Shown here in pieces: positions 5,481 to 58,164 of a stretch of DNA of 64,000 bases. The position numbers and the translations under genes were made by a program. The notes under the pieces were generated by a model, which was not told where the DNA came from, did not search any database, and was given only the letters and a program-made list of their open reading frames with translations. Position 1 is the stretch's first letter; the number at the start of each line of letters is the position of its first letter. Source of the DNA: Candidatus Daviesbacteria bacterium (GTDB lineage: Bacteria > Patescibacteriota > Microgenomatia > Daviesbacterales > UBA10151); contig JACPKP010000007.1 of NCBI GenBank assembly GCA_016186955.1, positions 1,962-65,961 on the forward strand, read 5' to 3'.

Positions 5481-6902
<1,422 letters not shown>

Positions 6903-6968
6903 TCACACCTCCGAGGTGTGATATTTCTACAACAGTTGATTGACAAAGGGTTTGTTTGGTGTTAATAG
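6903..6968 (+). promoter_or_regulatory. 19-bp perfect palindrome TCACACCTCCGAGGTGTGA followed by candidate sigma70 promoter (TTGACA-17-TAATAG)
   Basis: Palindrome at 6903-6921, TTGACA at 6940-6945. The same palindrome and a TTGACA recur at 29979-30038. Confidence 0.4.
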
Positions 6969-7094
6969 TAAGTTTGGTTTTCAATAATATGACCGAATTA
7001 AATGGTTGAAAGATGCGAAGATGCAGAACATTATTTATGCCCGGGATACCCTTTTTGTGATGGAGGTGTTATAATCCAGATTGGAGGTGATGAT

Positions 7095-7367
7095 ATGACA
7101 CAAGAACAAGAAAATGTTGCAGAGGTACAGCCTGAGGTGCGTAAAAAAATTCTTGTAAAAGTAAATTTTTTTGAGGATGAGTTAGAAGATTTAAAAAGAC
7201 TTGCTGAAGCTAGAGGTACCAATATGACGGAGGCATTGCGAGGTGCGATTGCTACTGAAAAATTTTTGCGTGAGAAAATTGCTGAGGGGAACAGTATATT
7301 AATACAAAATAAAGAGGTTGGTACAATCAGAGAAGTGTTGCTGATTCCAAAAAAAGAGCAAACCTAA
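7095..7367 (+). CDS. ribbon-helix-helix (CopG/Arc/ParD-like) DNA-binding protein
   Basis: Beta-strand KILVKVNFFEDEL followed by two helices (LEDLKRLAEARGTNMTEALRGAIATEKFL). Strong SD GGAGGT before the ATG at 7095. Confidence 0.5.
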   Translation: MTQEQENVAEVQPEVRKKILVKVNFFEDELEDLKRLAEARGTNMTEALRGAIATEKFLREKIAEGNSILIQNKEVGTIREVLLIPKKEQT

Positions 7368-7408
7368 AATAGTTTAGAAACAAAACAAGTAGTAATTAAT
7401 TCTGAAAC

Positions 7409-8590
7409 ATGAAAGAGGTTTATATTGTCAGCGCTGCCAGGACTCCGATTGGTAAATTTTTGGGTTCCCTCTCCCCTTTTGGCGCCCCTGAACTTGGAGG
7501 TTTTGCAATCAGGGCAGCAGTTGGGTGGTCAGGTTTGAGGTCGGAAAATATAGAAGAGGTGATCATGGGGCAGGCGCTTCAGGCAGGAGTTGGCCAGGCG
7601 CCCGCCAGGCAGGCAATGCTTAAAGCCGGTTTACCCGAATCAGCGTCTGCCACCACAATAAACAAAGTTTGCGCTTCAGGTCTTGAAGCAATCCACATTG
7701 GCGCTTTAAAAATCCAAACCGGTGAAGCAAATTGTCTAGTTGCAGGCGGGATGGAAAGTATGAGTAGGGCTCCCCACATCCTGAAAAATTCCAGGAATTT
7801 AAAAATGGGTGATGTAAATTTGGTTGATAGTGCAATAAGTGATGGGTTATGGTGTGCTTTTGAAAACACCCATATGGGGAATTTGGCGGAATTTATTGCG
7901 AGAGAGCGGGGAATCAACCGGATGGAAATGGATAAATTTGCGCTACTTAGCCACCTCAAAGCAGTCAGCGCAATAAATAAGGGTAAATTTTTACAGGAAA
8001 TTATACCAGTACCTCAATTTGGAGGGAAAGGGTTTGTGGGCCGGGATGAAAATCCCCGGGCAGACACCAGTATGGAGAAACTTATGAAATTGGATCCGGT
8101 ATTTGAGAAGGGCAGCGGAATTGTCACTGCAGGCAATGCCCCGGGGTTGGCAGACGGGGCGGCAGCGCTGGTTTTGGCTGAAAAATCCTGGCTTGAAAAA
8201 AGTGGTATTCCTCCCCTGGCAAAAATTACCGGTTATGCTACAGCTGCAACAGAGCCAAAATGGCTTTTTGCAGCGCCTGAGGTTGCCATCAAAAAATTGC
8301 TGGCCAGGACAAAAACCCAGCTTTCAGATTATCACCTTTTAGAAGTAAATGAGGCTTTTGCTGCGCAGATTTTGGCAAACGGGCAGGCGCTCAATTGGGA
8401 TTGGGACAGGGTTAATGTCAACGGCGGGGCAATCGCTTTGGGCCATCCGGTTGGCGCCACAGGGGCCAGAATTGTTGTGACACTCGTCCATGCTTTAAAA
8501 GCCCGTGGTTTAAAAAGCGGTCTTGCCGCGCTTTGCCATGGCGGAGGCGGGGCTGTGGCAATGAGTTTTGAGCTATCCCGCTATTGTTAA
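7409..8590 (+). CDS. acetyl-CoA C-acetyltransferase (thiolase)
   Basis: VSAARTPIGKF N-terminus; catalytic Cys (NKVCASG); C-terminal GHPVGATGAR and CHGGG motifs. Confidence 0.85.
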   Translation: MKEVYIVSAARTPIGKFLGSLSPFGAPELGGFAIRAAVGWSGLRSENIEEVIMGQALQAGVGQAPARQAMLKAGLPESASATTINKVCASGLEAIHIGALKIQTGEANCLVAGGMESMSRAPHILKNSRNLKMGDVNLVDSAISDGLWCAFENTHMGNLAEFIARERGINRMEMDKFALLSHLKAVSAINKGKFLQEIIPVPQFGGKGFVGRDENPRADTSMEKLMKLDPVFEKGSGIVTAGNAPGLADGAAALVLAEKSWLEKSGIPPLAKITGYATAATEPKWLFAAPEVAIKKLLARTKTQLSDYHLLEVNEAFAAQILANGQALNWDWDRVNVNGGAIALGHPVGATGARIVVTLVHALKARGLKSGLAALCHGGGGAVAMSFELSRYC

Positions 8591-22525: not shown

Positions 22526-23383
22526 ATGGGTCCTGATGAAGAGACTGTGGAACCAGGGTTAGAAACAGAGGAATTGGCCCAAAAGATAAACCCCTTTTGG
22601 GAACAGCCCTATCAGTTGGCAAGAGCAGTTGCCAGAAGATGGAGAAAACCCGAGGCGAAAACAGAGATAGAACCTACTATTGCGTCTACTCACCAGGAAG
22701 ATATCCTTTCAACTAGAGATAAAAAAAACAAGCGGGAATTAGGAGCAGATAGCGCTAATGTTGTACTATTTGTTGAGCTTGAAGATGATGGCTCAGCAAT
22801 ATACAAACCCGTAAGTGGAGAGCAGCCTTACTTAAGACATGGTATTGAAGCAGGGACTTATTATCAAAGAGAACGGGCAGCATACCTAGTAGATAGGTTT
22901 TTAGGTCTCGGTTTAGTTCCACCAACCGTAATACGTGAATTAGATGGTGAGATTGGGAGTTTGCAGCAGTTTATTCCAGAAACAACGGGCAGTTGGGGTG
23001 TGGATCTTTCTCAACTACAAGAAGATTTATATCAACTTTGGGTTTTTGATTATATTATTTGGAATACAGATAGACATTCAGGTAATTTACTTTTTCAGGG
23101 TAATAAGCTTTTCGCAATCGATCATGGTCTGTCTTTTGGGAGTGAGTGTCGTATGTTCATGAGGCATTTTTATGACATTGCCGCTCCCAAACAACTGGTT
23201 GGTCTGCTGGAGCAATTTTTAAAAGATGACAAAAGCAAAAAAATTCTACAAGAACTACTTGAGGAGTTGCTCAGTGAAGATGAGGTAAAGGCTTGTGTGA
23301 GAAGGATTGAACATATCGGTTCTAAATTAATCAAAAATGGTATGATCAAACTTAATGAAGATAGCATTTTCAATCCTGAATAA
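22526..23383 (+). CDS. PI3K/PI4K-like atypical kinase-fold protein
   Basis: Catalytic-loop-like IWNTDRHSGNLLF (DRHxxN) and IDHGLSFG (DFG-equivalent). Upstream AIYKP beta-strand lysine and a conserved Glu in QRERAAYLVDRF. Confidence 0.45.
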   Translation: MGPDEETVEPGLETEELAQKINPFWEQPYQLARAVARRWRKPEAKTEIEPTIASTHQEDILSTRDKKNKRELGADSANVVLFVELEDDGSAIYKPVSGEQPYLRHGIEAGTYYQRERAAYLVDRFLGLGLVPPTVIRELDGEIGSLQQFIPETTGSWGVDLSQLQEDLYQLWVFDYIIWNTDRHSGNLLFQGNKLFAIDHGLSFGSECRMFMRHFYDIAAPKQLVGLLEQFLKDDKSKKILQELLEELLSEDEVKACVRRIEHIGSKLIKNGMIKLNEDSIFNPE

Positions 23384-23388
23384 CACAA

Positions 23389-23643
23389 ATGGCTTATGTA
23401 GAGATCTATAAATTAAATAATGATGGTTCGCAAAAGATTTTGGCTGTTTGCAGGCAGCTTGGGGAAGAGGTGGTTTGTGAAGGAGAGGAAAAGTTCATTG
23501 AATATTTAAATAAAGAGGGGATTAATGATTACAATTCCCCATCCCCGAAAAAATTATTCCCAAAAGACGGTAGGTTGTTTCTTGAACAATTAAAGTACAA
23601 TTTCAAATCAGGATACCTAAATGCCACTGATTTAAAAGAATGA
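23389..23643 (+). CDS. hypothetical protein
   Basis: ORF only; 84 aa; no recognisable motif. Confidence 0.3.
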   Translation: MAYVEIYKLNNDGSQKILAVCRQLGEEVVCEGEEKFIEYLNKEGINDYNSPSPKKLFPKDGRLFLEQLKYNFKSGYLNATDLKE

Positions 23644-23652
23644 ACCGCGTTA

Positions 23653-23719
23653 GGCACAAAAGGCGTCCCCTTTTGAGGCTAAATTAATTTATACCCCCTT
23701 GTTTTAACTGTAACTATTT
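23653..23719. repeat. Y-repeat copy 1: 67-nt exact duplicate of the 3' end of the regulator gene (24481..25785)
   Basis: Identical to 24457-24523. Its reverse complement encodes EIVTVKTRGYKLI*. Confidence 0.7.
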
Positions 23720-23723
23720 TTAA

Positions 23724-23749
23724 AATCCCACCCCCTGGGTGGTCCTGAG
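23724..23749. repeat. X-repeat copy 1 (variant, CCCACC-CCCT-GGGTGG hairpin)
   Basis: AAAATCCCACCCCCTGGGTGGTCCTGAG. Confidence 0.5.
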
Positions 23750-24449
23750 TATAGGTTTCCTTTCATCGAAAAGTTGCGGGCACAACAATTATAAGATATC
23801 ATTCTTGTTTATGGAGAGAATCAGTGTGCAGGAAGCAGGGTTAGAAGGTTTACCCAGGATTAGGGGACATCATCTAAATAAACTGAAAGAGCTCTATGTT
23901 TTTATGAATACTAAAAGGGAATCTTTATCCGAATCAGGATATCAAGGTTCTTTGTCAGGAGAAATGGAAGCTTTAATCAAATTTTTTATTCAGGAACATA
24001 GCAGCGATTTGTTGACATTTGTAGATCCTGCAACCCGTACTTTTGGTTTATCTCAAGAGTGGATGATGAGTTATATAAACGATACAATTGGAGGTATTGA
24101 AGCCGAGAAAGTTAAAATATACAATCAAAAAACATATGAAGCGATTGTAAAATATATTTCATATCCGGCAAGCCAACAAGTTCTATTGACAGTTACCCCG
24201 GATTTTATTTGCAGATTATGTTTAGTGGGAACACATTGTTTAAAAAGCTCAAAATTGATGCCACTTGATTATAGAGAAATCAGAGAATTTTCAAAGTTCC
24301 AAATAAACAGGAGAAGGGATATGCAAATTTATACGGAGGAATTTAAATTTAGCGATCGCCTGAAGCCATTAATCACTAAAGTAGTGTTAACCACCTTTGG
24401 AGATATTAGGTTTTACTTATCTTTTGGTGGAATCCCACCCCCGGGTTAG
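23739..24449 (+). CDS. hypothetical protein on a repeat-flanked cassette
   Basis: ORF bracketed by X/Y repeats. The true start may be MERISVQ at 23811. No recognisable domain. Confidence 0.4.
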   Translation: MVLSIGFLSSKSCGHNNYKISFLFMERISVQEAGLEGLPRIRGHHLNKLKELYVFMNTKRESLSESGYQGSLSGEMEALIKFFIQEHSSDLLTFVDPATRTFGLSQEWMMSYINDTIGGIEAEKVKIYNQKTYEAIVKYISYPASQQVLLTVTPDFICRLCLVGTHCLKSSKLMPLDYREIREFSKFQINRRRDMQIYTEEFKFSDRLKPLITKVVLTTFGDIRFYLSFGGIPPPG

Positions 24450-24523
24450 TCCTAGGCACAAAAGGCGTCCCCTTTTGAGGCTAAATTAATTTATACCCCC
24501 TTGTTTTAACTGTAACTATTTCA
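24431..24523. repeat. X-repeat copy 2 plus Y-repeat copy 2 (native 3' end of the regulator gene)
   Basis: AATCCCACCCCCGGGTTAGTCCTAGG followed by the 67-nt Y sequence. Confidence 0.7.
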
Positions 24524-25785
24524 TAAGAGCTGTTTTGTTGCTTCAGCTTACTCCGGACTCTTGCTACCAGCCTGTCTATTGCCCAATCGGAGACTCCCAA
24601 TTCCTCTTCTTCAGGCCAGACTGCTTCAATTATGGCTTCCCGCTCACATATCTGGTTTAAGTTATTTTGTAGACAAGTAAACAACAGATGTTCTTTTTTA
24701 CTGAGTTCCAACGGTGGCATTTCCAGCGGTTTGGCCCCATTTGTCTGTCTTGATTTGATGAAATTTTCAAAGATCGGGCTAAAAATCCGGGTTTTACCTT
24801 TTTCAGTAGCAACCAGGCCGGTATCCCAAAGGTATTTACTTGAAAGTTGCCCATCTTTTGAAATTTTTTCTTTGGAGACAATCTGAATCAGTGTATCTTG
24901 CTCTGTTTCATTTAAACTGTCCCAGAGTTCTTCGGATTGTAAAGCTATCCTTTCATCCTCTATCAAGGCCGGAAAAAGTTCAAAATTTTTGTTTAAAATT
25001 TTGATTTTTTCTGAGAGAGTAATCAAGGCGAGCAGCAGGTATTGGATATATCCGCCGGAAAACGCAAATAACTCTTCCTTAAATTTTTTGGGAAGGTGCA
25101 AGTTATACTTTCTGGTGTTAACTTTATAGATAGTTTCCAGATCTTTGGGCTCTGCTGTTTTAACATACATCTGGTATACGATTAGGGCGGGAGAGGCTTG
25201 GCTGAATGCCTTGGGTGCAAGCTGGTCTAAACTCCTAAAACTTGTCAAAACATAAGTTAACTGGTGGTTGGTTGCATCATACAGGCTTTCAAGGTTGGCA
25301 AAAAGCTCAGGCGTGACAGCATCTTTAATACGGTCAAAATGGATTAAAAACATTGTCGGGATAAAGCCTGCCTGTGTGATTTTTATCAAGCTTAACCTGA
25401 CACAATCAAATAATAAAAACAGGTCTTTTGATTGAATTGAATCCAAAAAAAGGTTCTCGACATATTTTTTAATTTTAGGTTCCAAATTTAAGCGCTCGCA
25501 GTTATCAACAATCCTTTTTAAAGTTAACATCCAAAATGGGAAAACCTCCCTTTCTACCAAATCATTTAGATCCACATGGATAAATAAATGTTTTTTTCTA
25601 TTTGGAATGTGTTTGTCTATCACCTTTTTATGGCTTAAGAAAAACCTTAAGAAATTGCTGATGCCAACCCGGCGCATACCGATCATAATGATTGTCTGGC
25701 GGTTTTTGAGATAATATCCTAAATTTTGGGAGATCTCTTTCCTGAAGGTTTTTGGGTAATACGATTCCAGGACCGTGTTTACCAT
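24481..25785 (-). CDS. transcriptional regulator: degenerate AAA/STAND-like NTPase domain fused to C-terminal OmpR/PhoB-type winged helix
   Basis: N-terminal IIMIGMRRVGISNFL resembles a Walker A with Lys replaced by Ile. Walker B-like LFIHVDLND. The C-terminus EAVWPEEE...IDRLVARVRSKL...IVTVKTRGYKLI is trans_reg_C-like. Confidence 0.6.
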   Translation of the reverse strand: MVNTVLESYYPKTFRKEISQNLGYYLKNRQTIIMIGMRRVGISNFLRFFLSHKKVIDKHIPNRKKHLFIHVDLNDLVEREVFPFWMLTLKRIVDNCERLNLEPKIKKYVENLFLDSIQSKDLFLLFDCVRLSLIKITQAGFIPTMFLIHFDRIKDAVTPELFANLESLYDATNHQLTYVLTSFRSLDQLAPKAFSQASPALIVYQMYVKTAEPKDLETIYKVNTRKYNLHLPKKFKEELFAFSGGYIQYLLLALITLSEKIKILNKNFELFPALIEDERIALQSEELWDSLNETEQDTLIQIVSKEKISKDGQLSSKYLWDTGLVATEKGKTRIFSPIFENFIKSRQTNGAKPLEMPPLELSKKEHLLFTCLQNNLNQICEREAIIEAVWPEEEELGVSDWAIDRLVARVRSKLKQQNSSYEIVTVKTRGYKLI

Positions 25786-25805
25786 GCAGGTTAATTTTAG
25801 AAGGA

Positions 25806-25862
25806 TTTGGTCAAATTAGCAAATAAATCAGGATTTTGTCAGAATGTGGTCAAAATAGCGTC
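25806..25862. promoter_or_regulatory. direct repeats GGTCAAAWTAGC(N) in the regulator gene's upstream region (possible wHTH operator)
   Basis: GGTCAAATTAGC (25808) and GGTCAAAATAGCG (25848), with a TTGTCAGAATG between them. Confidence 0.25.
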
Positions 25863-25898
25863 AAGCATATATTTTATCCTTGGCAATAAAATATATCA

Positions 25899-26177
25899 GT
25901 GACAGAAAAAGAATGGACGGATTACGGTTATGGTATCTCTCCGCTTTATGCTGCAGAAAACCCGGTGACTTATTTGCCTATTGCCCAGTTTTCTGCTCCT
26001 CTTGAATGTCCGCAGGGAATAATTGTAAAAGAAGCCCAACCGGAACAAAAAATTCAACCCAGACAAATTATTGTCGCACAGCCAAAAGTAGAGTACAGCA
26101 GCTATAAACGGCTACCCTTTTGGCGCAATTTAATAATAATTCTGCAAAAATGGGCGCCCCGTATAGGTTCCATTTGA
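25899..26177 (+). CDS. hypothetical protein
   Basis: ORF only; Gln/Pro-rich. Confidence 0.25.
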   Translation: MTEKEWTDYGYGISPLYAAENPVTYLPIAQFSAPLECPQGIIVKEAQPEQKIQPRQIIVAQPKVEYSSYKRLPFWRNLIIILQKWAPRIGSI

Positions 26178-26237
26178 CTTTTAAGTTCCAAGAGGTTAAT
26201 ATGTTATTCTGTCAAACGAAAAACCACGGAAGTTAAT

Positions 26238-26368
26238 CGTGGATGAAGTTTGCTTCGCCGACAGGCGAATCTCGCCGAAGGCGAGCAGGAAGAGAAACTA
26301 CGGGCGAAGCGAAGCGGAGTCCGTAGAGGCTCATTCTAAAGCACCCCTCTTCAGGGGGCTATTTTTTG
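26238..26368 (+). ncRNA. structured leader/possible small RNA: nested GC stems ending in an intrinsic-terminator-like hairpin plus T6
   Basis: GCTTCGCC...GGCGAAGC long-range pairing, CTCGCC-GAA-GGCGAG and CTACGG...CCGTAG stems, then CCCCTCTTCAGGGGG followed by TTTTTT (26343-26368). Confidence 0.3.
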
Positions 26369-26379
26369 AAATCACACCT

Positions 26380-26628
26380 ATGGATCAGTTAAAAAAACAA
26401 AAGCTTGAAATGTGGCAAAAAAAACTTGAAGGGCTTCAAAAAGAGTTCAAGGAGATTATGGTGCGCAAAGGGGAAGCTGCAGCTGACGGTGACCTTTCAG
26501 AAAATGCAGCATACAAACAGGCTGTGGAGGAGGCTGATATTTGCCTGGTCAGGATCAGTGAAATTAAAAAAATTATAGCTAATTTGGAAGGACCCGCCTC
26601 CGCCAAGGCTCCGGCGGGCAAGGGATAA
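26380..26628 (+). CDS. stand-alone GreA/GreB N-terminal coiled-coil domain protein
   Basis: GDLSENAAYKQA signature of the Gre-factor N-terminal domain, with two Asp/Glu near the coiled-coil tip. No FKBP-like C-domain; 82 aa. Confidence 0.55.
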   Translation: MDQLKKQKLEMWQKKLEGLQKEFKEIMVRKGEAAADGDLSENAAYKQAVEEADICLVRISEIKKIIANLEGPASAKAPAGKG

Positions 26629-26632
26629 TAGA

Positions 26633-28801
26633 ATGGCTGTTACAAAGACTAAGAGAGATTACCCCCTTGATAGGATACGTAACATAGGCATCATTGCCCA
26701 TATTGATGCCGGGAAGACCACCACAACAGAGCGGATCTTATTTTATACCGGTAAAACTTATAAAATAGGTAATATTGATGAAGGCACTACCACAACTGAT
26801 TGGATGGAACAGGAAAAGGAACGTGGTATTACAATAGTTTCTGCTGCTATAACCGCTTCCTGGACTGCCAAGTCAGGACCTTTTCAAGACCAGGAGATGA
26901 GGATTAATTTAATTGATACCCCCGGGCATGTGGATTTTACAGTGGAGGTAGAGCGGTCCTTGCGGGTTTTGGACGGAGGGGTGATTGTTTTGGATGCAGC
27001 CTCTGGTGTGCAGTCCCAGACCGAGACTGTCTGGAGGCAGGCCAATAAATACCATGTTCCTCTGATTGCATTTGCCAACAAGATGGATGTGGTTGGGGCT
27101 GATTTTTTGGGCACAATCCAGTCAGCCAGAGATAGATTAGGGGCAAACGCTATCGCCTATAACCTGCCGATTGGTGCGGAAACCAGTTTTAAAGGGGTTG
27201 TGGATTTGTTGGGTAATGATGAGAAGGGTGCTTTCGCGATTGTTTGGGAGCAAAGTGGTTCTGATTTTGATCCCAGTGGTTCAAAATTTAACATAACAGA
27301 TATTCCAGAAGATATGAAAATTGCAGTTGAGGAGCACAGAAATAAATTGATTGAAGAGATTTGTGCTACGGATGAAGTTTTATTGGAACAGTTTCTTAAT
27401 GGTAAGAAGATTGCTGTTAATGATTTGAAGTTAGCTTTGAGAAAAGCAGTAATTGCTGAAAAAATTGTCCCGGTTATGGCAGGTTCTTCACTTCGCAATA
27501 AAGGGGTGCAACCAATGCTTGATAATGTGGTTAATTTTTTGCCTTCCCCCCAGGATTTGCCTGAGATTAAAGGGCTTGACCCTAAAACCCAAGAGGAAAA
27601 GATTTTTCAGAATGTAAAAGATGCCCCTTTGGGCGCTTTGGCTTTTAAAATCCAGGTTGACCCTCATGTTGGGAGGCTCACTTATGTTAGGGTTTATTCT
27701 GGGATTTTAAAATCAGGTTCATATCTTTACAACTCAACAAAAGATGTAAAAGAGCGGGTAGGGAGGGTGCTTTTAATGCACGCCAATGATAGGGAGGAGA
27801 TTGATGAAGCTTTTGCAGGGGAAATTATAGCAGTAGTGGGGTTGAAAGATACTGTGACTGGAGATACGCTTTGTGATGATTCAAACCCGATTGTTTTGGA
27901 ATCCATTACTTTTGCAGAACCTGTGATCTCTCTTGCTATTGAACCCAAAACTAAATCAGACCAGGAAAAACTGGCTTATTCTTTGCAAAGACTGGGGGAA
28001 GAAGACCCAACATTTCGGGTAAAATCTAACCCTGAGACAGGACAGACTATTATCTCCGGTATGGGAGAGCTCCATCTGGAGATTATTGTGGACAGGATGA
28101 AAAGGGAGTTTAAGGTGGAGGCGAATATTGGAGAGCCTCAGGTTGCATACCGGGAAACTATCCAAAAAGAAGCAAGGGGTGAGGGTAAGTACATCAGGCA
28201 GACTGGTGGCAGAGGCCAATACGGACATTGCTTGCTTAGGATTGAACCTCTTCCCAGGGGCCAGGGACGGGAATTTGTCTCAGAAGTTGTGGGTGGGGCA
28301 ATACCAAGGGAGTTTATTCCGGCTATCGAAAAAGGGGTTATTGAAAAAGAAGACACCGGAATGTTGGCCGGTTTTCCGGTAACGGATATCAAAGTTGCGG
28401 TTTATGACGGGTCATATCATGATGTTGATTCATCTGAGATTGCATTTAAAATTGCCGGATCCTTAGGGCTTTCCGAGGCTGCCAAAGAGGCGGATATGAT
28501 ACTTTTGGAGCCTATTATGAAGGTGGAAGTGACAACGCCTGAGGAATTTATGGGAGATCTGATTGGGGATTTATCTTCAAAACGGGCACAGATCCTGGGT
28601 ACTGAGAAAAGGCATAATTCAAGCGTGATTAATGCTTTGGTGCCTCTTGCAGAACTTGGAGGTTATATAACTGCCATAAGGTCAATGTCACAAGGTCGTG
28701 CTTCAGCCTACATTGAGCCCTCCCATTATGAGAGTGTGCCAAGTAACATTACCCAAAAAATTGTTGCATCTTCAGGGTTCACTGGCAGAGTTGAGCATTA
28801 A
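26633..28801 (+). CDS. fusA: elongation factor G
   Basis: AHIDAGKTTTTERIL, DTPGHVDF, NKMD; full length. Confidence 0.95.
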   Translation: MAVTKTKRDYPLDRIRNIGIIAHIDAGKTTTTERILFYTGKTYKIGNIDEGTTTTDWMEQEKERGITIVSAAITASWTAKSGPFQDQEMRINLIDTPGHVDFTVEVERSLRVLDGGVIVLDAASGVQSQTETVWRQANKYHVPLIAFANKMDVVGADFLGTIQSARDRLGANAIAYNLPIGAETSFKGVVDLLGNDEKGAFAIVWEQSGSDFDPSGSKFNITDIPEDMKIAVEEHRNKLIEEICATDEVLLEQFLNGKKIAVNDLKLALRKAVIAEKIVPVMAGSSLRNKGVQPMLDNVVNFLPSPQDLPEIKGLDPKTQEEKIFQNVKDAPLGALAFKIQVDPHVGRLTYVRVYSGILKSGSYLYNSTKDVKERVGRVLLMHANDREEIDEAFAGEIIAVVGLKDTVTGDTLCDDSNPIVLESITFAEPVISLAIEPKTKSDQEKLAYSLQRLGEEDPTFRVKSNPETGQTIISGMGELHLEIIVDRMKREFKVEANIGEPQVAYRETIQKEARGEGKYIRQTGGRGQYGHCLLRIEPLPRGQGREFVSEVVGGAIPREFIPAIEKGVIEKEDTGMLAGFPVTDIKVAVYDGSYHDVDSSEIAFKIAGSLGLSEAAKEADMILLEPIMKVEVTTPEEFMGDLIGDLSSKRAQILGTEKRHNSSVINALVPLAELGGYITAIRSMSQGRASAYIEPSHYESVPSNITQKIVASSGFTGRVEH

Positions 28802-28900
28802 ATTTGCATTTTTTTGTAAGTTGTATTAGTATATATATACTTAAATCTCCCGCAAGGACCAAAAGTCATTTGCGGGATTTTTTGTGCTATACTCATTTGC

Positions 28901-29455
28901 ATGAAACAAGCCCGCTGCGTGATTATTATTGATGGGAGTAACTTCTACTTCAAGTTAAAAGATTTGGATTTACATTATGAACTGCAATTTGATTTCTCTG
29001 GTTTTGCTAAATTGCTGGCTGGTAAGAATAAAATTGCGAGGTGTGTGTACTATGTGGGTGCGGTAAGAACAGATGGTACAAAACATACCCAAAAGTTGTT
29101 TAATAAGCAGCAGAAACTTTTTGCAAATCTCAAGAAACATAATTTTCAATATTCGCTTGGATATTTGTTGAAATCTGGCGGAAAAATGCATGAAAAAGGA
29201 GTAGATGTTAATATGGCTGTTGATATAGTTAAAGGTGCGCTAAAAGATGAGTTTGAACATTTTATTATAGTCAGCTCGGACACGGATTTGTTACCAGCTA
29301 TATTAGTAGTCAAAGAAGCGGGCAAAACTATTGAATATATAGGATTTTCTCATCAAGCAAGTTTGGCGATGGTAGCTAATTGTTCCGAATCCAGGTTATT
29401 GAAAAAAGAGGATTTACTACCTTTTGTAAGTCGCAAAATATCACCCAAAAAATAG
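28901..29455 (+). CDS. NYN-domain (LabA/PIN-like) nuclease-fold protein
   Basis: IIIDGSNF and FIIVSSDTDL motifs typical of the NYN/DUF88 PIN-like fold. Confidence 0.65.
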   Translation: MKQARCVIIIDGSNFYFKLKDLDLHYELQFDFSGFAKLLAGKNKIARCVYYVGAVRTDGTKHTQKLFNKQQKLFANLKKHNFQYSLGYLLKSGGKMHEKGVDVNMAVDIVKGALKDEFEHFIIVSSDTDLLPAILVVKEAGKTIEYIGFSHQASLAMVANCSESRLLKKEDLLPFVSRKISPKK

Positions 29456-29494
29456 TGGCATCCTCCGGGTTTACAGGCAGAGTAGAGCATTAAT
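29444..29494 (+). repeat. 51-nt synonymous-codon duplicate of the fusA 3' terminus (encodes TQKIVASSGFTGRVEH*)
   Basis: 9 of 51 nt differ from 28751-28801, all at synonymous third positions; out of frame with the NYN gene. Confidence 0.8.
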
Positions 29495-29877
29495 TATTTG
29501 AAATATTGCCTTTTACGATAAATTGCCCAGAACCAGAGTGTGCTTACGATGATAAGACTTAACCAAGCAGGTATATAAGAATAGGGCCAATATGCACCTG
29601 AAGAATTTTTGAAAAAAATAACCAAATAATCAAGAAATGATATTATCCAGCTAATTATTGATAAATAAATCCCCCACTTTTGAAATTTCCAAAGTCCGTA
29701 TATTAAGACAATTGCCACTAAGTTTACTAAGATCCTGTAGGGAAAATACCAAATAGGGTTGAAATTTTCAAGGTTTATTTGGTTAAATTTGAAGAAAATT
29801 AAGTAAAGGGAATATAAAACGGATAAAGAAAAAATAAATAGAACAATTGTTAAAAATTTGCCTCGCTCTTTTTTCAT
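29494..29877 (-). CDS. integral membrane protein (4 predicted TM helices)
   Basis: Highly hydrophobic and Trp/Tyr-rich, with TM segments throughout. Confidence 0.5.
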   Translation of the reverse strand: MKKERGKFLTIVLFIFSLSVLYSLYLIFFKFNQINLENFNPIWYFPYRILVNLVAIVLIYGLWKFQKWGIYLSIISWIISFLDYLVIFFKNSSGAYWPYSYIPAWLSLIIVSTLWFWAIYRKRQYFK

Positions 29878-29978
29878 ATAAACTAATTATAATATTAAAT
29901 TACACTTTTTACAAAGATTGTTTAAGAAAACGTTTTTCTTAAACATTACCCCTCTGATGTGGCAGGACAATTTTAATA

Positions 29979-30038
29979 TCACACCTCCGAGGTGTGATAA
30001 AAATAGCTGTTGACAAATTGGATACAAGCTCATAGAAT
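29979..30038 (+). promoter_or_regulatory. 19-bp palindrome TCACACCTCCGAGGTGTGA followed by sigma70 promoter TTGACA-17-TAGAAT
   Basis: Second copy of the palindrome. The -10 lies only ~8 nt before the ATG at 30046, suggesting a near-leaderless transcript. Confidence 0.45.
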
Positions 30039-30045
30039 CACTGGC

Positions 30046-30780
30046 ATGGAGAGCCAAGGTGCAGTGAAGAAAATTTCAAGAGTTAGAAAAACCATCATTG
30101 ATACCAAACCAGAACCTGTATCACAAATAGACTCCATACCCACTATTCAACTTCACTCAAAAAAAGATATTTTCAATAACCTCAATGAAGAAATAAAAAA
30201 ATTAAAAGATCAATTTGATATTTTGGAAAAAGAAATTACTGAAACAAGACAAGAGTGGGTTAAGGAACAAAGAGTTCATCAACAGGAGATGGAGGAAAGA
30301 GAACGTCAAGAGAATCTTGGAAGAAAACATGAGCAAGAGCTGTACCAGTATGAAACAAATTTGAATCATAAAAAAGCGGAAGATGAATTTAGTGACAAAA
30401 AAACTAAGTGGGAAAAGGAGCTTTTAGAGCGTAAAGATGAGCTTGCAAAAGATAAACAGGAATTAGCGGAATTAAGAAGCAAGGTAGCAGGTTTTGAACA
30501 ACAGCTTGTCAAAGCAGCAGATGGGGCATCTGAAGCGGCTAAAAAAGAGCTGGAATCTAGGTTTGAGAATGAAAAAAGATTATATGAGCAGCAAGTCAAG
30601 GCGGAAAAAGATGTACTCAATTTAAGGCTCAGCAATTTGACTGCTGATAATAGTAGGCAAGCTCATGAGATAGAAACTCTCAAAAAAGCTTTGGATGAAG
30701 CTACAAGACAGGTGAAGGAGATAGCGGTAAAAGTGATTGAATCAAACAGCGGTGTAATTAAAACCTCCTCTGCAGAATAG
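30046..30780 (+). CDS. coiled-coil protein (Glu/Lys-rich)
   Basis: Heptad-like EELKKL periodicity throughout. The ORF-track start at 30010 lies inside the promoter; the ATG at 30046 is preferred. Confidence 0.45.
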   Translation: MESQGAVKKISRVRKTIIDTKPEPVSQIDSIPTIQLHSKKDIFNNLNEEIKKLKDQFDILEKEITETRQEWVKEQRVHQQEMEERERQENLGRKHEQELYQYETNLNHKKAEDEFSDKKTKWEKELLERKDELAKDKQELAELRSKVAGFEQQLVKAADGASEAAKKELESRFENEKRLYEQQVKAEKDVLNLRLSNLTADNSRQAHEIETLKKALDEATRQVKEIAVKVIESNSGVIKTSSAE

Positions 30781-30834
30781 TTACTTTTAATGTGATCGTT
30801 TAAATATCCGTAGTATGGTAAAATAAATTTACGT

Positions 30835-31191
30835 ATGAATGAACAAGAGGTTAGTTTAGACCAACTAAAACAGATAATACGGGAAAAAGGCATAAATCCC
30901 GCCCCTGGCGCTAAACCCGGCAGTTTTACAGCATATGGAATCGTTTTAGGAAACCATGGATTAGCAGCTACGGAAGTTTTTTATGAAATTTATAAAAGAC
31001 TTAAACCTATCTTTGGAGAAGCGCTGCTGGATGGTTTTTCAACTTCTGCCGCGCATGCGGAACTGGGGAGATTTGAGCCTAAATTAGCGCCTTACTCCGA
31101 TGGAGAAACAGCCTGGCTTGAGGCTCAGAAATCAGAGCTGACTGTTTATTTAAAAAGCACACTGAAGCGGAGGAAACAGGTAGGATTGTAA
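30835..31191 (+). CDS. hypothetical protein
   Basis: ORF only; 118 aa. Confidence 0.35.
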   Translation: MNEQEVSLDQLKQIIREKGINPAPGAKPGSFTAYGIVLGNHGLAATEVFYEIYKRLKPIFGEALLDGFSTSAAHAELGRFEPKLAPYSDGETAWLEAQKSELTVYLKSTLKRRKQVGL

Positions 31192-31205
31192 GTGGCCGAG
31201 CCAAT

Positions 31206-32291
31206 ATGGTTGAGAATAAACCCCAAAAATTATGGTTGTACGATCAAACTATTGCAGGTGAAGGTTTGAGCCAAATTGTCCAAGATCTTCTGAAAGATGT
31301 CCCAAGTATCGGGCAGCCAAATATCTTTCCATTGGAGTGGCATGGTGATGCCCATGGAAAATTAGCAAAGCTTTATGAAACAGCAAAAGAACGTGCTTGG
31401 AATCCGGCTCAGGCGATTGATTGGAAAAAGTTGGATCCCAAAGACTTTACAAGAGAACAACGGTTGGGGGTAATGTATTGGTATTCAGTTTTGGCGAATT
31501 TCGACGGTTCGGGGCCTCCGGTTTTTGCTAAAGCAATGATAAAATCTTATGAAACACATGAACCTAATGAGCTTAGAAATGCATTTTTTTCAATAGCCCG
31601 GGATGAAGTAAACCATGAAGAGGTTTGTTACCGGACAGTTTCCAGGCTTTGGTCTCAAACCCCGACAGAATGGGACCCTCAAAATGACCTAGAAGCTTTA
31701 GCCTTGAGAAACATCCGTTGGCTTTATTATAACGGCGGTAGATATTGGAAAGGTTATTCCAAGGCTTTGGAAGAAAAATATCCGATGAGCGTACTTTTTT
31801 CTTCATTTATGATGGGAGAGGTTGCGGCCACAACCCTTTTTCACAACATGAGTAAGGCAGCCAAACATCCTGTTTTTGCCCAGGGGCTTAAAAAAGTTGG
31901 GCAGGATGAAGCTAGGCATATGGCAATTTGCCTGGCTGCGTTGGAGCATGAATATATGAAACTGACAGAAGAAGATAAACAGATGATTACTAAGCAGCTT
32001 CGGGCCGGGTTTGTATTTCTTTCCATGATTTTGTATGAACCGCCTGATGAATTTTGGAAGCTGCCCCCGGAATTTTTGGAGGTTCATAGAAAATTAGAAC
32101 AGTTAGCAAGGGAAGCAGGTTTGGGAGTGGCAACCTTAAGCGAAAAGAAACAAGTTTGGCAGGAGGCAATGCTTAAAGTAAAAACAGTAGTAAACTCCTA
32201 TGGAGTGGAATTTCCAGCCATGCCTGAAGTAGGTATCACCGGAAAGGAGGTTGTAAATATCAGCATGGAAGATATAATTCCTGTATTCTAA
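31206..32291 (+). CDS. ferritin-like diiron-carboxylate oxygenase superfamily protein
   Basis: Two E...ExxH pairs (E-THE...DEVNH and GEVAA...DEARH) spaced as in diiron enzymes of the R2/AurF/desaturase type. Confidence 0.5.
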   Translation: MVENKPQKLWLYDQTIAGEGLSQIVQDLLKDVPSIGQPNIFPLEWHGDAHGKLAKLYETAKERAWNPAQAIDWKKLDPKDFTREQRLGVMYWYSVLANFDGSGPPVFAKAMIKSYETHEPNELRNAFFSIARDEVNHEEVCYRTVSRLWSQTPTEWDPQNDLEALALRNIRWLYYNGGRYWKGYSKALEEKYPMSVLFSSFMMGEVAATTLFHNMSKAAKHPVFAQGLKKVGQDEARHMAICLAALEHEYMKLTEEDKQMITKQLRAGFVFLSMILYEPPDEFWKLPPEFLEVHRKLEQLAREAGLGVATLSEKKQVWQEAMLKVKTVVNSYGVEFPAMPEVGITGKEVVNISMEDIIPVF

Positions 32292-32292
32292 T

Positions 32293-32778
32293 ATGGAAAG
32301 AATGGTTGGAAAAGCAGTCAGAACCTTAGATGACAAAACAACTGTTTTGAACTTTGACAGTATAAAGAGAGGCGACAGGTTTGTGATGGAGCAGGAAGTT
32401 ACAAGGGAAAAGGTGATGCTTTTTGCACAGGCTTCCGGTGATTTCAGTCTTTTACACTCTGATCCTCAATATGCATTAAATACCCGTTTTGGCAAGGTTA
32501 TTGCCCATGGAATGCTGACAGGGGGTTTTATTTCTGCAGCGCTTGCGGGTTTAGGTAAAGACGCAATGACTGCAGTCTATCTGGAGCAGTTTTTAAAATT
32601 CCACAGGCCGGTTGTAGAAGGGGATATTTTAAGGGTTTATTTAAAAATCACTTGTAAAAATAACACAGACAAAAGCCTTTGTTTGACGACAGATTGTTAC
32701 AACAGAAGAGATCGATTGGTAGTCAGCGGTAGGGCAAAAATCCGTTTGGATCCATACCCATATCCTCAAGCTGCCTGA
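32293..32778 (+). CDS. MaoC-like (R)-specific enoyl-CoA hydratase/dehydratase (hotdog fold)
   Basis: ASGDFSLLHSDPQYA...GKVIAHGML motif. Its start overlaps the stop of the diiron gene. Confidence 0.7.
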   Translation: MERMVGKAVRTLDDKTTVLNFDSIKRGDRFVMEQEVTREKVMLFAQASGDFSLLHSDPQYALNTRFGKVIAHGMLTGGFISAALAGLGKDAMTAVYLEQFLKFHRPVVEGDILRVYLKITCKNNTDKSLCLTTDCYNRRDRLVVSGRAKIRLDPYPYPQAA

Positions 32779-32821
32779 AAATTCAGGATGATCGGGATCA
32801 CGCAAAATTTCAAACTAACTA

Positions 32822-32850
32822 TTGCATTTTGCGCTAGATTATTATATTAT
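32822..32850 (+). promoter_or_regulatory. candidate tuf promoter TTGCAT-17-TATTAT with long leader
   Basis: Good hexamers, followed by a CCAGCTT-TGGA-AGCTGG hairpin and a ~140-nt leader ending in an AAGGA SD. Confidence 0.4.
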
Positions 32851-32991
32851 TTGGTATAAGCCCAGCTTTGGAAGCTGGATTTTAATGGGTTGGTACCCAT
32901 GTCATTTCGATACGCAAGTGAGAAATCTTATATAGAAATTAGATTGCCACGTCGCTCGTAAACTCACTCCTCGCAATGACAAAGGAAACAT

Positions 32992-34176
32992 ATGGCAGAT
33001 TCTAAAAAGTACGAAAGAACTAAACCGCACGTAAATGTCGGAACCATGGGTCATGTTGACCATGGTAAAACTACCCTGACTGCAGCGATTACCAAAGTTT
33101 TGGCAGGTAAAGGTTTGGCAGAGGTTAGAACTGTAGACCAAATTGATGCAGCCCCGGAGGAAAAAGCCCGCGGAATCACCATCAATATTTCCCATCAGGA
33201 ATATGAGACCGAAAAACGCCACTATGCCCACATCGATATGCCGGGTCATGCTGACTATATCAAAAACATGATTACCGGAGCAGCGCAGACAGACGGAGCT
33301 ATTCTGGTAGTTTCTGCCCCGGATGGCCCAATGCCTCAAACCAGGGAACATCTTTTGCTAGCCCGTCAGGTGGGGGTTCCGGCGATTGTGGTCTACCTTA
33401 ATAAAACAGATATGGTTGATGACCCTGAGCTTTTAGATTTAGTGGAAGAAGAGGTCAAAGACTTGCTTAAAAAATATGAATATGACCCCAATTCACCAAT
33501 AATCAGAGGCAGCGCTAAAAAAGCTTTGGAAGGCGATCCTGAAGCAGTTAAATCTATTGAAGCTTTAATGGAAGCTGTTGATACATGGATCCCAACCCCT
33601 GTTAGGGATAAAGATAAGCCGTTTTTGATGGCTGTTGAAGATGTATTTTCCATTAAAGGGCGTGGTACAGTGGCTACAGGCAGGATTGAAAGAGGGGTTG
33701 TCAAAATTAATGAGGAAATTGAAATTGTGGGTATCAGGCCTACCAAAAAGAGCGTTGTGACAGGCATTGAGATGTTCCATAAAATGCTCGACCAGGGTGA
33801 AGCAGGGGATAATGCCGGGATACTATTGCGGGGTGTTGAGAAAGATGATATTGAAAGAGGGCAGGTTTTGGCAAAACCCGGTTCAATCACCCCTCACAGT
33901 GAATTTGAGGCTGAAATTTATGTTTTGAGTAAGGAAGAGGGTGGAAGGCATACCCCGTTTTTTAAAGGCTACAGGCCGCAATTTTACATCAGGACTACTG
34001 ATGTGACAGGTGAGGTGCAGCTTCCTGAGGGGGTTGAGATGGCTATGCCTGGGGACACAGTTAAAATTGTAGGAAAATTAATCACCCCGGTTGCTATGGA
34101 GGATGGTTTGAGGTTTGCAGTCAGGGAAGGCGGGAAAACAGTAGGGGCAGGGGTCATTACCAAGATAATTGCTTAA
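32992..34176 (+). CDS. tuf: elongation factor Tu
   Basis: [22 protein letters not shown]; full length. Confidence 0.95.
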
Positions 34177-34234: not shown

Positions 34235-34501
34235 ATGCCTGAAATTGAAATTACCGAAGACAAGAGAAAAGATTTACGCAGTTGGGCTGATGGAGCTGGG
34301 AAGCGTTTAAAGAACATTGATCCAAACGGAGGAAGCTTAATATGGGACATTGCCGGCGAGCCGTTTGTCATGCATACAAGGCTTCTGGCGCTGTATACTA
34401 GCGGCCGCTCTTTTGACTGTTGGGCAGAGAGGTATTTTGTGCTTTGCAGCGATAAACATGCTGAGACCCTTGAGCAAGCAGGTATTATTGAGTTAGAGTA
34501 G
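34235..34501 (+). CDS. hypothetical protein inserted between tuf and rpsJ
   Basis: ORF with an SD-like AGAGAGGAAAG upstream; no known motif. Confidence 0.35.
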   Translation: MPEIEITEDKRKDLRSWADGAGKRLKNIDPNGGSLIWDIAGEPFVMHTRLLALYTSGRSFDCWAERYFVLCSDKHAETLEQAGIIELE

Positions 34502-34562: not shown

Positions 34563-34871
34563 ATGGCAAAAGGCAGAATTAGAGTCCGTTTAAAATCTTA
34601 TGACCATCGGGTTTTAGATGCTACTTGTGAGCAGCTGCTGGATACTGCTTTGCGTACCGGCGCCAAAATTGTCGGTCCCATTCCCCTTCCCACAAAACGC
34701 TCCAGGATTACCATTCCCCGTTCTCCTTTTAAACACAAAGATTCCCAGGAAGCTTTTGAAATAAAAACCCACAAAAGAGTAGTAGATATCGTTGAACCCA
34801 CTGATAAAACCATAGATTCACTAATGCATTTGGAACTTCCAGCTGGTGTGGATATAGAAGTAAAGATGTGA
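34563..34871 (+). CDS. rpsJ: 30S ribosomal protein S10
   Basis: [14 protein letters not shown]...IVGPIPLPT. Confidence 0.9.
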
Positions 34872-34883
34872 TATTTTAAACAA

Positions 34884-35189
34884 ATGGTAGAGACAGAATA
34901 TCGCGACCCTATAGATACAGAATATAACAGGTATTTAGACAGTCCTTCTAAGAAGCTTTGGGATGATGTTGATATAGAGGTAAAAAAACTTTTATATTTT
35001 GCCGAAATGACCTCAGGTATGACATCCTTGGAAAGAACGGTTTATCTGTTGAGGTTTGAAGTTAGAAATATTATCAATAAAAGATACTCACGAAGAGAAG
35101 TGGGAGAGTTAATAGAAAAATCCCCCAGGACTGTACAAAGATTGGAAAAGAGTGCCATGGCCAAAATTGCATCCGGATTTGGCGCCTGA
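34884..35189 (+). CDS. stand-alone sigma-70 region-4-like HTH protein
   Basis: LERTVYLLRFEV...YSRREVGELIEKSPRTVQRLEKSAMAKI closely fits the sigma-70 region 4 pattern. Confidence 0.5.
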   Translation: MVETEYRDPIDTEYNRYLDSPSKKLWDDVDIEVKKLLYFAEMTSGMTSLERTVYLLRFEVRNIINKRYSRREVGELIEKSPRTVQRLEKSAMAKIASGFGA

Positions 35190-57876: not shown

Positions 57877-58164
57877 ATGGTAAAGGTGATGGGCAAAAAA
57901 AGTTTTTTGGTGGTTTTGGGAGGGACTATTATTTGGTTTATTTCTACTATAATTCAACCTTTTGTTGATTTTTTTATATTTAAAAAACACATTGTGTCAA
58001 TTTTTGGGTCTCAATGTAGACCAACAGGTTACCCAATTCCACTTTGCCTAAGCGAAAATTCAGGTACGTTTTTTTACTACATGGTTATTTTAATTAATAT
58101 AATTTTTTGGTTTGCGGTTGTTTGGGTAATCTGGAAGATTCTTTTCAGAAGGAGAAAAAGCTAG
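57877..58164 (+). CDS. small membrane protein (2 TM)
   Basis: Hydrophobic ORF. The alternative longer ORF-track start would overlap the minus-strand gene. Confidence 0.25.
   Translation: MVKVMGKKSFLVVLGGTIIWFISTIIQPFVDFFIFKKHIVSIFGSQCRPTGYPIPLCLSENSGTFFYYMVILINIIFWFAVVWVIWKILFRRRKS

Follow-up and report, generated by a model that had tools for sequence, protein, structure and literature searches.

What separates fusA from tuf in a bacterium of the candidate phyla radiation (CPR), and what could a diiron-carboxylate protein and a MaoC-type hydratase, encoded side by side in that spacer, be doing there? These questions are raised by a 64,000-nt stretch of a Candidatus Daviesbacteria bacterium (contig JACPKP010000007.1; the whole stretch is hereafter called the window). 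Its plus strand carries fusA (elongation factor EF-G, 26633-28801; PDB phmmer E 1e-259, alignment to residue 712-718 of 722) as the left border and tuf (EF-Tu, 32992-34176; PDB phmmer E 4e-196) as the right border of an interval of 4,190 bp (28802-32991) with six open reading frames (ORFs) in the ORF list. The 4.2-kb gap given by a preliminary description of this DNA is thereby confirmed, both borders being identified by PDB search. The last two plus-strand genes of the interval, for a 361-aa diiron-carboxylate protein (31206-32291) and a MaoC/PhaJ-like hydratase (32293-32778), are our main subject. By sequence and structure prediction the first belongs to an uncharacterised family of R2/R2lox-type fold, and relatives of it recur elsewhere in clusters for CoA-thioester catabolism of the phenylacetate (paa) type.

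The diiron protein is identical to NCBI HYW46_04150, encoded on a contig of 69.7 kb, over the 341 aa of the NCBI call. Since the N-terminal extension 5′ of the NCBI start is kept in close relatives, the ATG at 31206 is favoured as the start of the gene. A first search for homologues returned 928 matches with 52-78% identity, and 759 were retrieved for the proteobacterial branch; members occur in at least 568 GTDB species. It is described by no Pfam or NCBIfam model, and database labels of its members vary between 'hypothetical', 'rubrerythrin', 'ferritin-like' and 'diiron oxygenase'. A full-length comparison of the window protein with the Vitreoscilla member gives 45% identity. Among 37 diverse members there are 75 invariant columns, and the window protein keeps all of them. 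D100, E116, H118, E134xxH137, E205 and E235xxH238 are invariant and the ligand set reads D/E...ExxH...E...ExxH, so the two E...ExxH motifs noticed in the preliminary description extend to all 37 homologues. The ends of the family are invariant too, with an N-terminal PNIFPxEW (residues 33-45 of the window protein) and a C-terminal IIPVF (357-361).

An AlphaFold2 model built from the 37-member alignment (predicted local distance difference test 85, predicted template modelling score 0.81) is all-helical with 12 helices. The two ExxH motifs, the further carboxylates and this all-helical model place the protein in the ferritin-like diiron-carboxylate superfamily. The best Foldseek matches in the PDB are R2lox (E 3e-4, TM 0.53/0.65) and then the R2 subunit of class I ribonucleotide reductase (RNR), proteins of similar size (about 300-340 aa). 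By inspection, the 34 residues between D100 and E134 reproduce the R2-like spacing from the first carboxylate to ExxH. RNR R2 carries its radical Tyr at the position equivalent to a nearly invariant Cys of the family, Cys 141, which by inspection lies four residues after H137; further differences from RNR R2 are the lack of an R1 partner and the catabolic genomic context. The PNIFPxEW and IIPVF regions are modelled with low to moderate confidence and may be partner-docking elements; R2 has a partner-binding C-terminal tail, of which the conserved, disordered tail of the diiron family is reminiscent.

At the level of sequence, none of the named families tested accommodates the protein. A ferritin or rubrerythrin, the outcome that would have undone the earlier interpretation, is not what was found: the Pfam scores lie below the cutoffs (20.4 against 22.8 bits for PF02915 and 14.1 against 24.7 for PF13668), the protein has 361 aa, against ~140-190 aa for the four-helix bundles of those families, and the predicted fold is R2lox/R2-like. 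Only one Pfam model, PF11583 (AurF/CmlI), gives matches to most members (36 of the 37 at E ≤ 0.01), and because of these NCBI names some members 'diiron oxygenase'; the window protein nevertheless reaches 24.7 bits against a cutoff of 29.6, aligned over residues 184-289 only, members from Variovorax and Vitreoscilla likewise stay below the gathering threshold, and the family is found outside arylamine and natural-product contexts. No Pfam or NCBIfam match to PaaA/PaaC (PF05138; TIGR02156) was obtained, and when the family profile was compared with Vitreoscilla PaaA by hhalign, the probability was 1.1%. The NCBIfam model of R2lox (NF006200) scores 15.9 bits against a cutoff of 194, while Ribonuc_red_sm (PF00268) is matched by one of 37 members (E 0.005). 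The acyl-ACP (acyl carrier protein) desaturase model PF03405 matched neither the window protein (E ≤ 0.1) nor the 37 members (E ≤ 0.01). Single-sequence and profile searches of the PDB gave no significant match, the best real one being R2lox at E 0.038. Judged from sequence and model together, this is a predicted catalytic-type diiron-carboxylate protein of the R2/R2lox structural branch that by sequence belongs to none of the named families tested.

Genomic context was used to approach its function. Our own ORF calling in high-GC loci was noisy, and our conclusions rest on calls based on hidden Markov models or annotation. No universal operon partner emerged across 80 GTDB loci, the neighbours being clade-specific, and in at least seven lineages the family lies in paa-type CoA clusters. 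The cluster shared by loci L117-L119 (1-11086) and L107/L108 encodes PaaF, G, H, I, J, K and N above the NCBIfam equivalog cutoffs; canonical paaA, B, C, D and E are all absent from it, and their place is taken by the new diiron protein, by a flavodoxin and by a PaaA-like protein of 258 aa that is degenerate and has a single ExxH. About 27 loci in Eremiobacterota have paaN (802 bits against a cutoff of 579) after the diiron gene; in most of them a 4HBT thioesterase comes next, and TetR, E1- and E3-like genes are often close by. On pVF1 of Vitreoscilla the diiron gene and a reductase gene stand at the end of a complete paa cluster. Associations of this type are also seen in Chloroflexota (L001: acyl-CoA dehydrogenase, PaaK-like ligase, diiron protein, PaaG-like crotonase, acyl-CoA dehydrogenase), in Acidimicrobiia (L075: PaaK-, H-, J- and G-like genes around the diiron gene) and in Binatota/delta loci (TetR, diiron protein, crotonase).

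On Variovorax chromids the operon begins with TetR, MaoC, a crotonase, an OB-fold protein, a thiolase and, in one strain, PaaN. A PaaK-like ligase, in some cases a CoA transferase, the diiron protein and a Fer2+FAD_binding_6+NAD_binding_1 reductase follow, and the 3′ part holds an ABC transporter, an FAD oxidase, Lrp and an indolepyruvate:ferredoxin oxidoreductase. PaaN alone passes its equivalog cutoff here, and the best NCBIfam matches of the reductase are BenC and MmoC. As we read it, the operon reproduces all upper Paa steps, with the diiron protein and reductase in the place of PaaABCE and the stand-alone MaoC where the hotdog domain of PaaZ would act. An NAD(P)H reductase thus adjoins the diiron gene in Variovorax and Vitreoscilla, a flavodoxin in L117, and in at least five lineages a hydratase of crotonase or MaoC fold lies beside the family gene or in an operon with it. 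The recurring PaaN, K, G, H, I and J equivalogs indicate oxygenation of aromatic acyl-CoA.

In the window, the MaoC gene follows the diiron gene on the same strand with the junction TAA-T-ATG and no terminator between, which leaves a 1-nt gap where an overlap had previously been described. The assignment of its product as a MaoC hotdog dehydratase can be sharpened to a PhaJ-like (R)-specific enoyl-CoA hydratase (PF01575, 74.7 bits against a cutoff of 27; best PDB matches the PhaJ structures 5cpg and 1iq6), and by inspection the motif GDFSLLH places Asp and His at the canonical hydratase-2 spacing. The strict pair is not co-conserved, an outcome that the preliminary description itself had named as counting against its interpretation: in a first survey only one of 84 other loci (L002) had a MaoC gene within 8 kb of the diiron gene, to which loci examined later added the two Variovorax operons, and the nearest relative of the window MaoC (43% identical, among 5.8 billion proteins) has no adjoining diiron gene.

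This arrangement recalls aerobic phenylacetate degradation, in which PaaABCE epoxidises phenylacetyl-CoA, PaaG isomerises the product to oxepin-CoA and the C-terminal domain of PaaZ, an R-specific hotdog hydratase, hydrolyses the latter (PMC4498308). Organisms in which PaaZ consists of the aldehyde dehydrogenase alone (PaaN type) use a stand-alone hotdog hydratase that also hydrates crotonyl-CoA, and both PaaABCE and BoxB rely on a downstream enzyme against product inhibition (PMC4498308). A coupled diiron oxygenase and hotdog hydratase fits this Paa logic, and the pair is therefore proposed to be an acyl-CoA oxygenase with its hydratase. The diiron protein would be the O2-activating hydroxylase or epoxidase component acting on CoA thioesters, most probably of arylacetyl-CoA type, analogous to PaaA of PaaABCE or BoxB of BoxAB and outside both families. 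As its electron donor we envisage an MmoC-type Fer2-FAD-NAD reductase encoded apart from the pair, or a flavodoxin. The PhaJ-like MaoC, its translation coupled to that of the oxygenase, would act on the product of the latter through hydration or hydrolytic ring opening, a step that would also relieve product inhibition of the oxygenase. Gene content, membership and conservation of the family, the class of fold, the genomic associations and the repeats are shown by the data; we infer the substrate class, reaction type, electron donor, regulon and direction of horizontal transfer, and epoxidation, hydroxylation and desaturation are all possible reaction types. In its general form, an oxygenase on CoA thioesters with a product-processing hydratase, the proposal seems to us evenly poised between right and wrong; that the diiron protein is specifically an arylacetyl-CoA epoxidase we put forward tentatively, the balance leaning against it. 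A similarly guarded standing belongs to the extension of this proposal to the whole family, which would then be a widespread, hitherto unrecognised single-polypeptide diiron aryl-acyl-CoA ring epoxidase that non-orthologously replaces or supplements PaaABCE in Eremiobacterota, Chloroflexota, Actinomycetota, Binatota and Proteobacteria. The CPR bacterium would have captured it along with a hotdog hydratase and brought the two under the control of a regulator that also governs a thiolase.

Comparison with the two established systems shows how far the analogy goes. PaaA and the diiron family share the ferritin-like diiron-carboxylate superfamily. Like PaaA, some members of the family are encoded in paa-type clusters alongside PaaK, G, H, I, J and N/Z, and in L117-L119 the diiron protein fills the oxygenase slot of a cluster devoid of canonical paaABCDE. 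PaaA needs an external NAD(P)H-linked Fe-S flavoprotein or flavodoxin, as the diiron family, judged from its contexts, probably does too, and both are functionally tied to a ring-processing enzyme of hotdog or crotonase type. They differ in that no sequence relationship is detectable between them; the diiron protein is a single chain of ~340-360 aa, in most loci devoid of PaaB, C and D partners, and the reductase beside its gene has, unlike PaaE, the MmoC/BenC domain order with Fer2 N-terminal. BoxAB combines a diiron oxygenase and a reductase; its substrate is the CoA thioester of an aromatic acid, and a ring hydrolase of crotonase type and an aldehyde dehydrogenase act after it (PMC4498308). 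BoxAB would resemble the proposed system as a two-component oxygenase and reductase on an aromatic CoA thioester, BoxB being compared by description only. BoxB is larger than the diiron family protein.

Several observations weigh against this proposal. As far as our literature searches reached, no characterised member of the family was found. CPR bacteria are generally considered fermentative, and an O2-dependent aromatic pathway is therefore unexpected. Among the scanned ORFs of the 64-kb window there are no genes for a reductase, CoA ligase, PaaG, PaaN or dehydrogenase, and of the components expected in a paa cluster only a MaoC and, 23 kb away, a generic thiolase are present. The window MaoC is closer to PhaJ (68 bits) than to PaaZ (31) and only 27-31% identical to the MaoC proteins of Variovorax and L002. 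The Vitreoscilla member coexists with canonical PaaABCDE, so that the family is not simply a replacement and its substrate may differ. Many other members have contexts of another kind. Ten Dormibacterota loci have a divergent IdeR/DtxR-FeoA repressor, which suggests metal-regulated expression of the diiron gene, and a THAP4 haem-binding protein. In 38 Streptosporangiales loci an EamA transporter lies beside the gene, in Marinobacterium it is near hemerythrin and MOSC, L111 presents ArsR and AHSA1, and in L089 it adjoins isocitrate lyase, with no link to paa. As further details of these loci, the THAP4-like gene in Dormibacterota (L007-L017) is convergent and an MpaB/Lcp-type oxygenase also flanks the diiron gene, and in L089 (1338-3710) the diiron gene lies 7 nt 3′ of isocitrate lyase (670 bits against 562), beside a PhdYeFM/ParE toxin-antitoxin pair.

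Three other explanations share some of this evidence. The preliminary description had proposed a small lipid or acyl-modification module, of which the link to CoA-thioester chemistry stands while the lipid part is not supported, no context of lipid biosynthesis or modification being found and the recurring neighbours being phenylacetate-pathway equivalogs. Spelled out, fatty-acyl-CoA or -ACP would be desaturated, hydroxylated or cleaved in its chain by the diiron protein, and MaoC would hydrate or dehydrate the aliphatic product; with the thiolase added, the result would be a small aliphatic acyl-CoA pathway, used perhaps on host-derived lipids. R2lox, the nearest solved fold, co-crystallises with a fatty-acid ligand, which counts for such a module. 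So does the alkane monooxygenase activity claimed for a Geobacillus R2lox in the abstract of one paper (PMC10867098). The similarity of the window MaoC to aliphatic PhaJ-type (R)-enoyl-CoA hydratases, the presence of one and the same palindrome at a generic acetyl-CoA acyltransferase gene (see below) and the acyl-CoA dehydrogenases flanking the diiron gene in L001 point the same way. Against it stand the absence of a match to the acyl-ACP desaturase or R2lox models (R2lox 15.9 against 194 bits), the absence of recurring fatty-acid synthesis or lipid genes beside the family in the surveyed loci, and recurring neighbours that are phenylacetate-specific equivalogs above threshold. BioE, a stand-alone ferritin-like diiron enzyme that cleaves acyl-CoA/ACP thioesters (PMC12704756), is a precedent for the lipid alternative and similar to the window protein in that it stands alone and works on CoA/ACP thioesters. 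It is a ~24-kDa ADO-like homodimer encoded beside bioFD/BA, with the ligands E26, E53, H56, E125, E155 and H158 (PMC12704756), whereas the diiron protein has 340-360 aa, an R2-like fold and no biotin-gene context. On these differences of size, fold class and context we rejected BioE identity, a candidate prompted by a MocR/GntR regulator in the neighbour census. On balance the lipid alternative is unlikely, with a small but real chance of being right. As a separate observation, the window also encodes a 999-aa protein (58161-61160, minus strand) with 3-keto-disaccharide-hydrolase-like and LCAT/lipase/PGAP1-type alpha/beta-hydrolase domains, whose domains would suit an enzyme acting on lipids, of possible relevance to the scavenging of lipids from a host.

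The diiron and MaoC genes might also have arrived separately and be uncoupled, either of them perhaps nearing loss. This would account for the lack of strict co-conservation and for the unequal depth of the two proteins (nearest relatives 78% identical for the diiron protein against 43% for MaoC), and it would suit a spacer that has also taken up a mobile NYN cassette, in a ribosomal-protein region with unrelated insertions elsewhere. The same strand, the 1-nt spacer and the lack of an intervening terminator speak against it, as do the retention of all 75 family-invariant diiron residues and of the MaoC Asp/His motif, the fully ameliorated composition, and the recurrence of hydratases of two folds beside the family in several independent lineages; we hold such a coincidence to be improbable. 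Finally, the family could serve against metal or oxygen stress, as an oxidase akin to rubrerythrin, ferritin or R2lox that removes O2 or peroxide or acts as an Fe/Mn buffer and not as a substrate oxygenase; a CPR cell sensitive to oxygen would benefit from such a protein. Sub-threshold Rubrerythrin Pfam matches in 33 of 37 members, the name 'rubrerythrin' given to members by some sources, the divergent IdeR/DtxR-FeoA repressor adjoining the gene in the 10 Dormibacterota loci, and ferritin and hemerythrin neighbours in Marinobacterium are compatible with such a stress role. The Rubrerythrin scores nevertheless remain below cutoff and cover one helix pair, the ~340-aa fold is of R2 type and not a 4-helix ferritin, Betaproteobacteria place the gene in catabolic operons with a dedicated NAD(P)H reductase, and metal-dependent regulation is equally expected of an Fe- or Mn-dependent enzyme. 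A stress role is the least likely of the readings considered.

The pair may share its regulation with a thiolase operon of the window. The diiron and MaoC genes are preceded on the plus strand by a gene for a Lys/Glu-rich coiled-coil protein (30010-30780; 256 aa from a TTG, 244 aa from ATG 30046), with only weak SMC/Rad50 coiled-coil-type matches in Pfam and NCBIfam, and by a 118-aa orphan ORF (30835-31191) lying 14 nt 5′ of the diiron gene. An exhaustive HMMER search of the latter among 1.84 billion representatives returned itself and 3 weak matches; it is absent beside diiron genes in the surveyed loci, and an MmoB/PaaB-like effector role was set aside for this orphan, not found beside diiron genes at other loci. 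Successive genes of the four on the plus strand are spaced by 54, 14 and 1 nt, and the first good hairpin with a T-run, terminator-like in appearance, comes after MaoC and 5′ of tuf (32862-32878, plus strand), which fits a single four-gene transcription unit.

The intergenic region 29878-30009, 5′ of the coiled-coil gene, holds two perfect palindromes: one of 12+12 nt (TGTTTAAGAAAAcgtTTTTCTTAAACA, 29919-29945), unique in the window with 0 expected, and one of 11+11 nt (TATCACACCTCcGAGGTGTGATA, 29977-29999), a candidate operator. The sigma-70-like promoter TTGACA-17-TAGAAT (30010-30038, plus strand; 11/12 matches) follows, the best-scoring site in the region. The 11+11 palindrome, 23 bp long and of the form (T/A)ATCACACCTCCGAGGTGTGATA, occurs in exactly two copies in the 64 kb, again with 0 expected, the other at 6901-6923, 16 nt 5′ of a TTGACA box. 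Each copy thus lies 10-16 nt 5′ of such a box, one before the coiled-coil/diiron/MaoC unit and the other before a putative co-regulated operon on the plus strand (7002-8590) that consists of a 121-aa ORF (7002-7367) and an acetyl-CoA C-acyltransferase (7409-8590; Thiolase_N/C in Pfam; NCBIfam TIGR01930, 430 bits against a cutoff of 240). Since they have this palindrome in common, the thiolase operon and the diiron-MaoC unit, 23 kb apart, may be under one regulator. The preliminary description had pointed to this thiolase as a check on pathway completeness: it is tied to the island through the palindrome, with no further pathway genes among the scanned ORFs of the window. The 121-aa ORF product, which gave no Pfam, NCBIfam or PDB match, is a candidate regulator for the palindrome. 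It has a Cys-rich N terminus and, by eye, a ribbon-helix-helix-like segment, KKILVKVNFFEDELEDLKRLAEARG. A role as DUF35/OB-fold thiolase partner was rejected for it, as it shows no similarity to the Variovorax OB-fold protein and none of those database matches.

Since the mechanical TTG start of the coiled-coil ORF falls within the TTGACA-17-TAGAAT promoter, ATG 30046, 8 nt past the -10 box, is the likelier start. Read from the sequence, that distance implies a leaderless or near-leaderless coiled-coil mRNA. Promoter-like sites are as frequent in the region (14) as in shuffled sequence (13 ± 4). An own promoter had been claimed for tuf, and its motif TTGCAT-17-TATTAT is present at 32823-32851, where it proves weak and no better than chance: it falls below the scan threshold because the -35 box TTGCAT matches the consensus at only 3/6 positions. 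The hairpin and T-run at 32862-32878 moreover stand between this motif and tuf.

What, then, brought these genes between fusA and tuf? The claim of an island is borne out in the form of an insertion mosaic of three parts: an NYN cassette, an opposite-strand four-transmembrane gene, and the palindrome-fronted four-gene unit. The middle part is a 127-aa membrane protein gene (29494-29877, minus strand; four hydrophobic segments judged by inspection), divergent from the coiled-coil unit, with no Pfam or NCBIfam match for its product. Rfam and tRNA scans found no Rfam family and no tRNA in the island. In GC and GC3 the genes of the island (GC3 0.31-0.38) are like fusA and tuf (GC3 0.40-0.41), so that the island is not an assembly chimera.

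The first part carries a gene for an NYN-domain (PIN-like) nuclease (28901-29455, plus strand; PF01936, 64.5 bits against a cutoff of 24.2). A 57-nt direct repeat, found by blastn and alignment, flanks it: the last 18 codons and stop of fusA (28745-28801, plus strand) recur as a second copy (29437-29493, plus strand) that overlaps the end of the NYN gene, and the cassette measures ~692 bp. The two copies encode the same peptide, NITQKIVASSGFTGRVEH*, and all 9 differences between them are synonymous, with 0 nonsynonymous. A decaying duplicate would gain nonsynonymous changes, and the second copy therefore comes from a functional fusA allele. Such a pattern is the signature of a cassette that passes from one genome to another by recombining into the 3′ end of fusA. 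A ~0.7-kb mobile NYN cassette would have entered there, leaving a synonymously diverged copy of the last 18 codons; the NYN element, in other words, carries a synonymously recoded fusA end.

The diiron gene appears to have a long history of its own. Its closest relatives (74-78% identity) come from soil bacteria with 64-71% GC, against 42% in the window gene. In a neighbour-joining tree the window protein groups with the low-GC L089 member (68% identity, GC 40%), its closest low-GC relative, both within a clade sister to Chloroflexota members. This fits a horizontal acquisition, with the window lineage presumably the recipient, old enough for full compositional amelioration. The diiron-MaoC pair would accordingly read as a horizontally acquired, ameliorated two-enzyme fragment, possibly co-regulated with the thiolase operon through the palindrome.

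The same str/S10 region is broken by other non-ribosomal insertions (22526-26628, 34235-34501 and 34884-35189). Among them are a PI3/PI4-kinase/HipA-like protein, a minus-strand AAA plus Trans_reg_C regulator and a small ORF that, by eye only, resembles the N-terminal part of GreA. The 88-aa ORF at 34235-34501 sits between tuf and a 102-aa ORF (34563-34871), just 3′ of which lies the 101-aa ORF at 34884-35189, with a weak sigma-70 region-4 match. The locus thus illustrates how mobile cassettes break up the conserved str operon of a reduced genome.

To our knowledge, two diiron systems, PaaABCE and BoxAB, account for all cases of aerobic, CoA-dependent epoxidation of aromatic rings known so far. 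If the proposal is true, a third, sequence-unrelated diiron family in that slot would explain paa clusters that lack paaABCDE, and it would offer enzymology a simpler, single-subunit system from a family present in hundreds of species. In this CPR bacterium the diiron protein would represent a CoA-dependent diiron ring oxygenase type in an unexpected host, with an oxygenase of CoA thioesters in the general sense having about equal chances of being right or wrong. The CPR organism would then gain an O2-dependent step of CoA-thioester oxidation, and an intact, ameliorated O2-activating enzyme coupled to enzymes of CoA-thioester chemistry would speak against regarding CPR bacteria as purely fermentative and poor in CoA metabolism.

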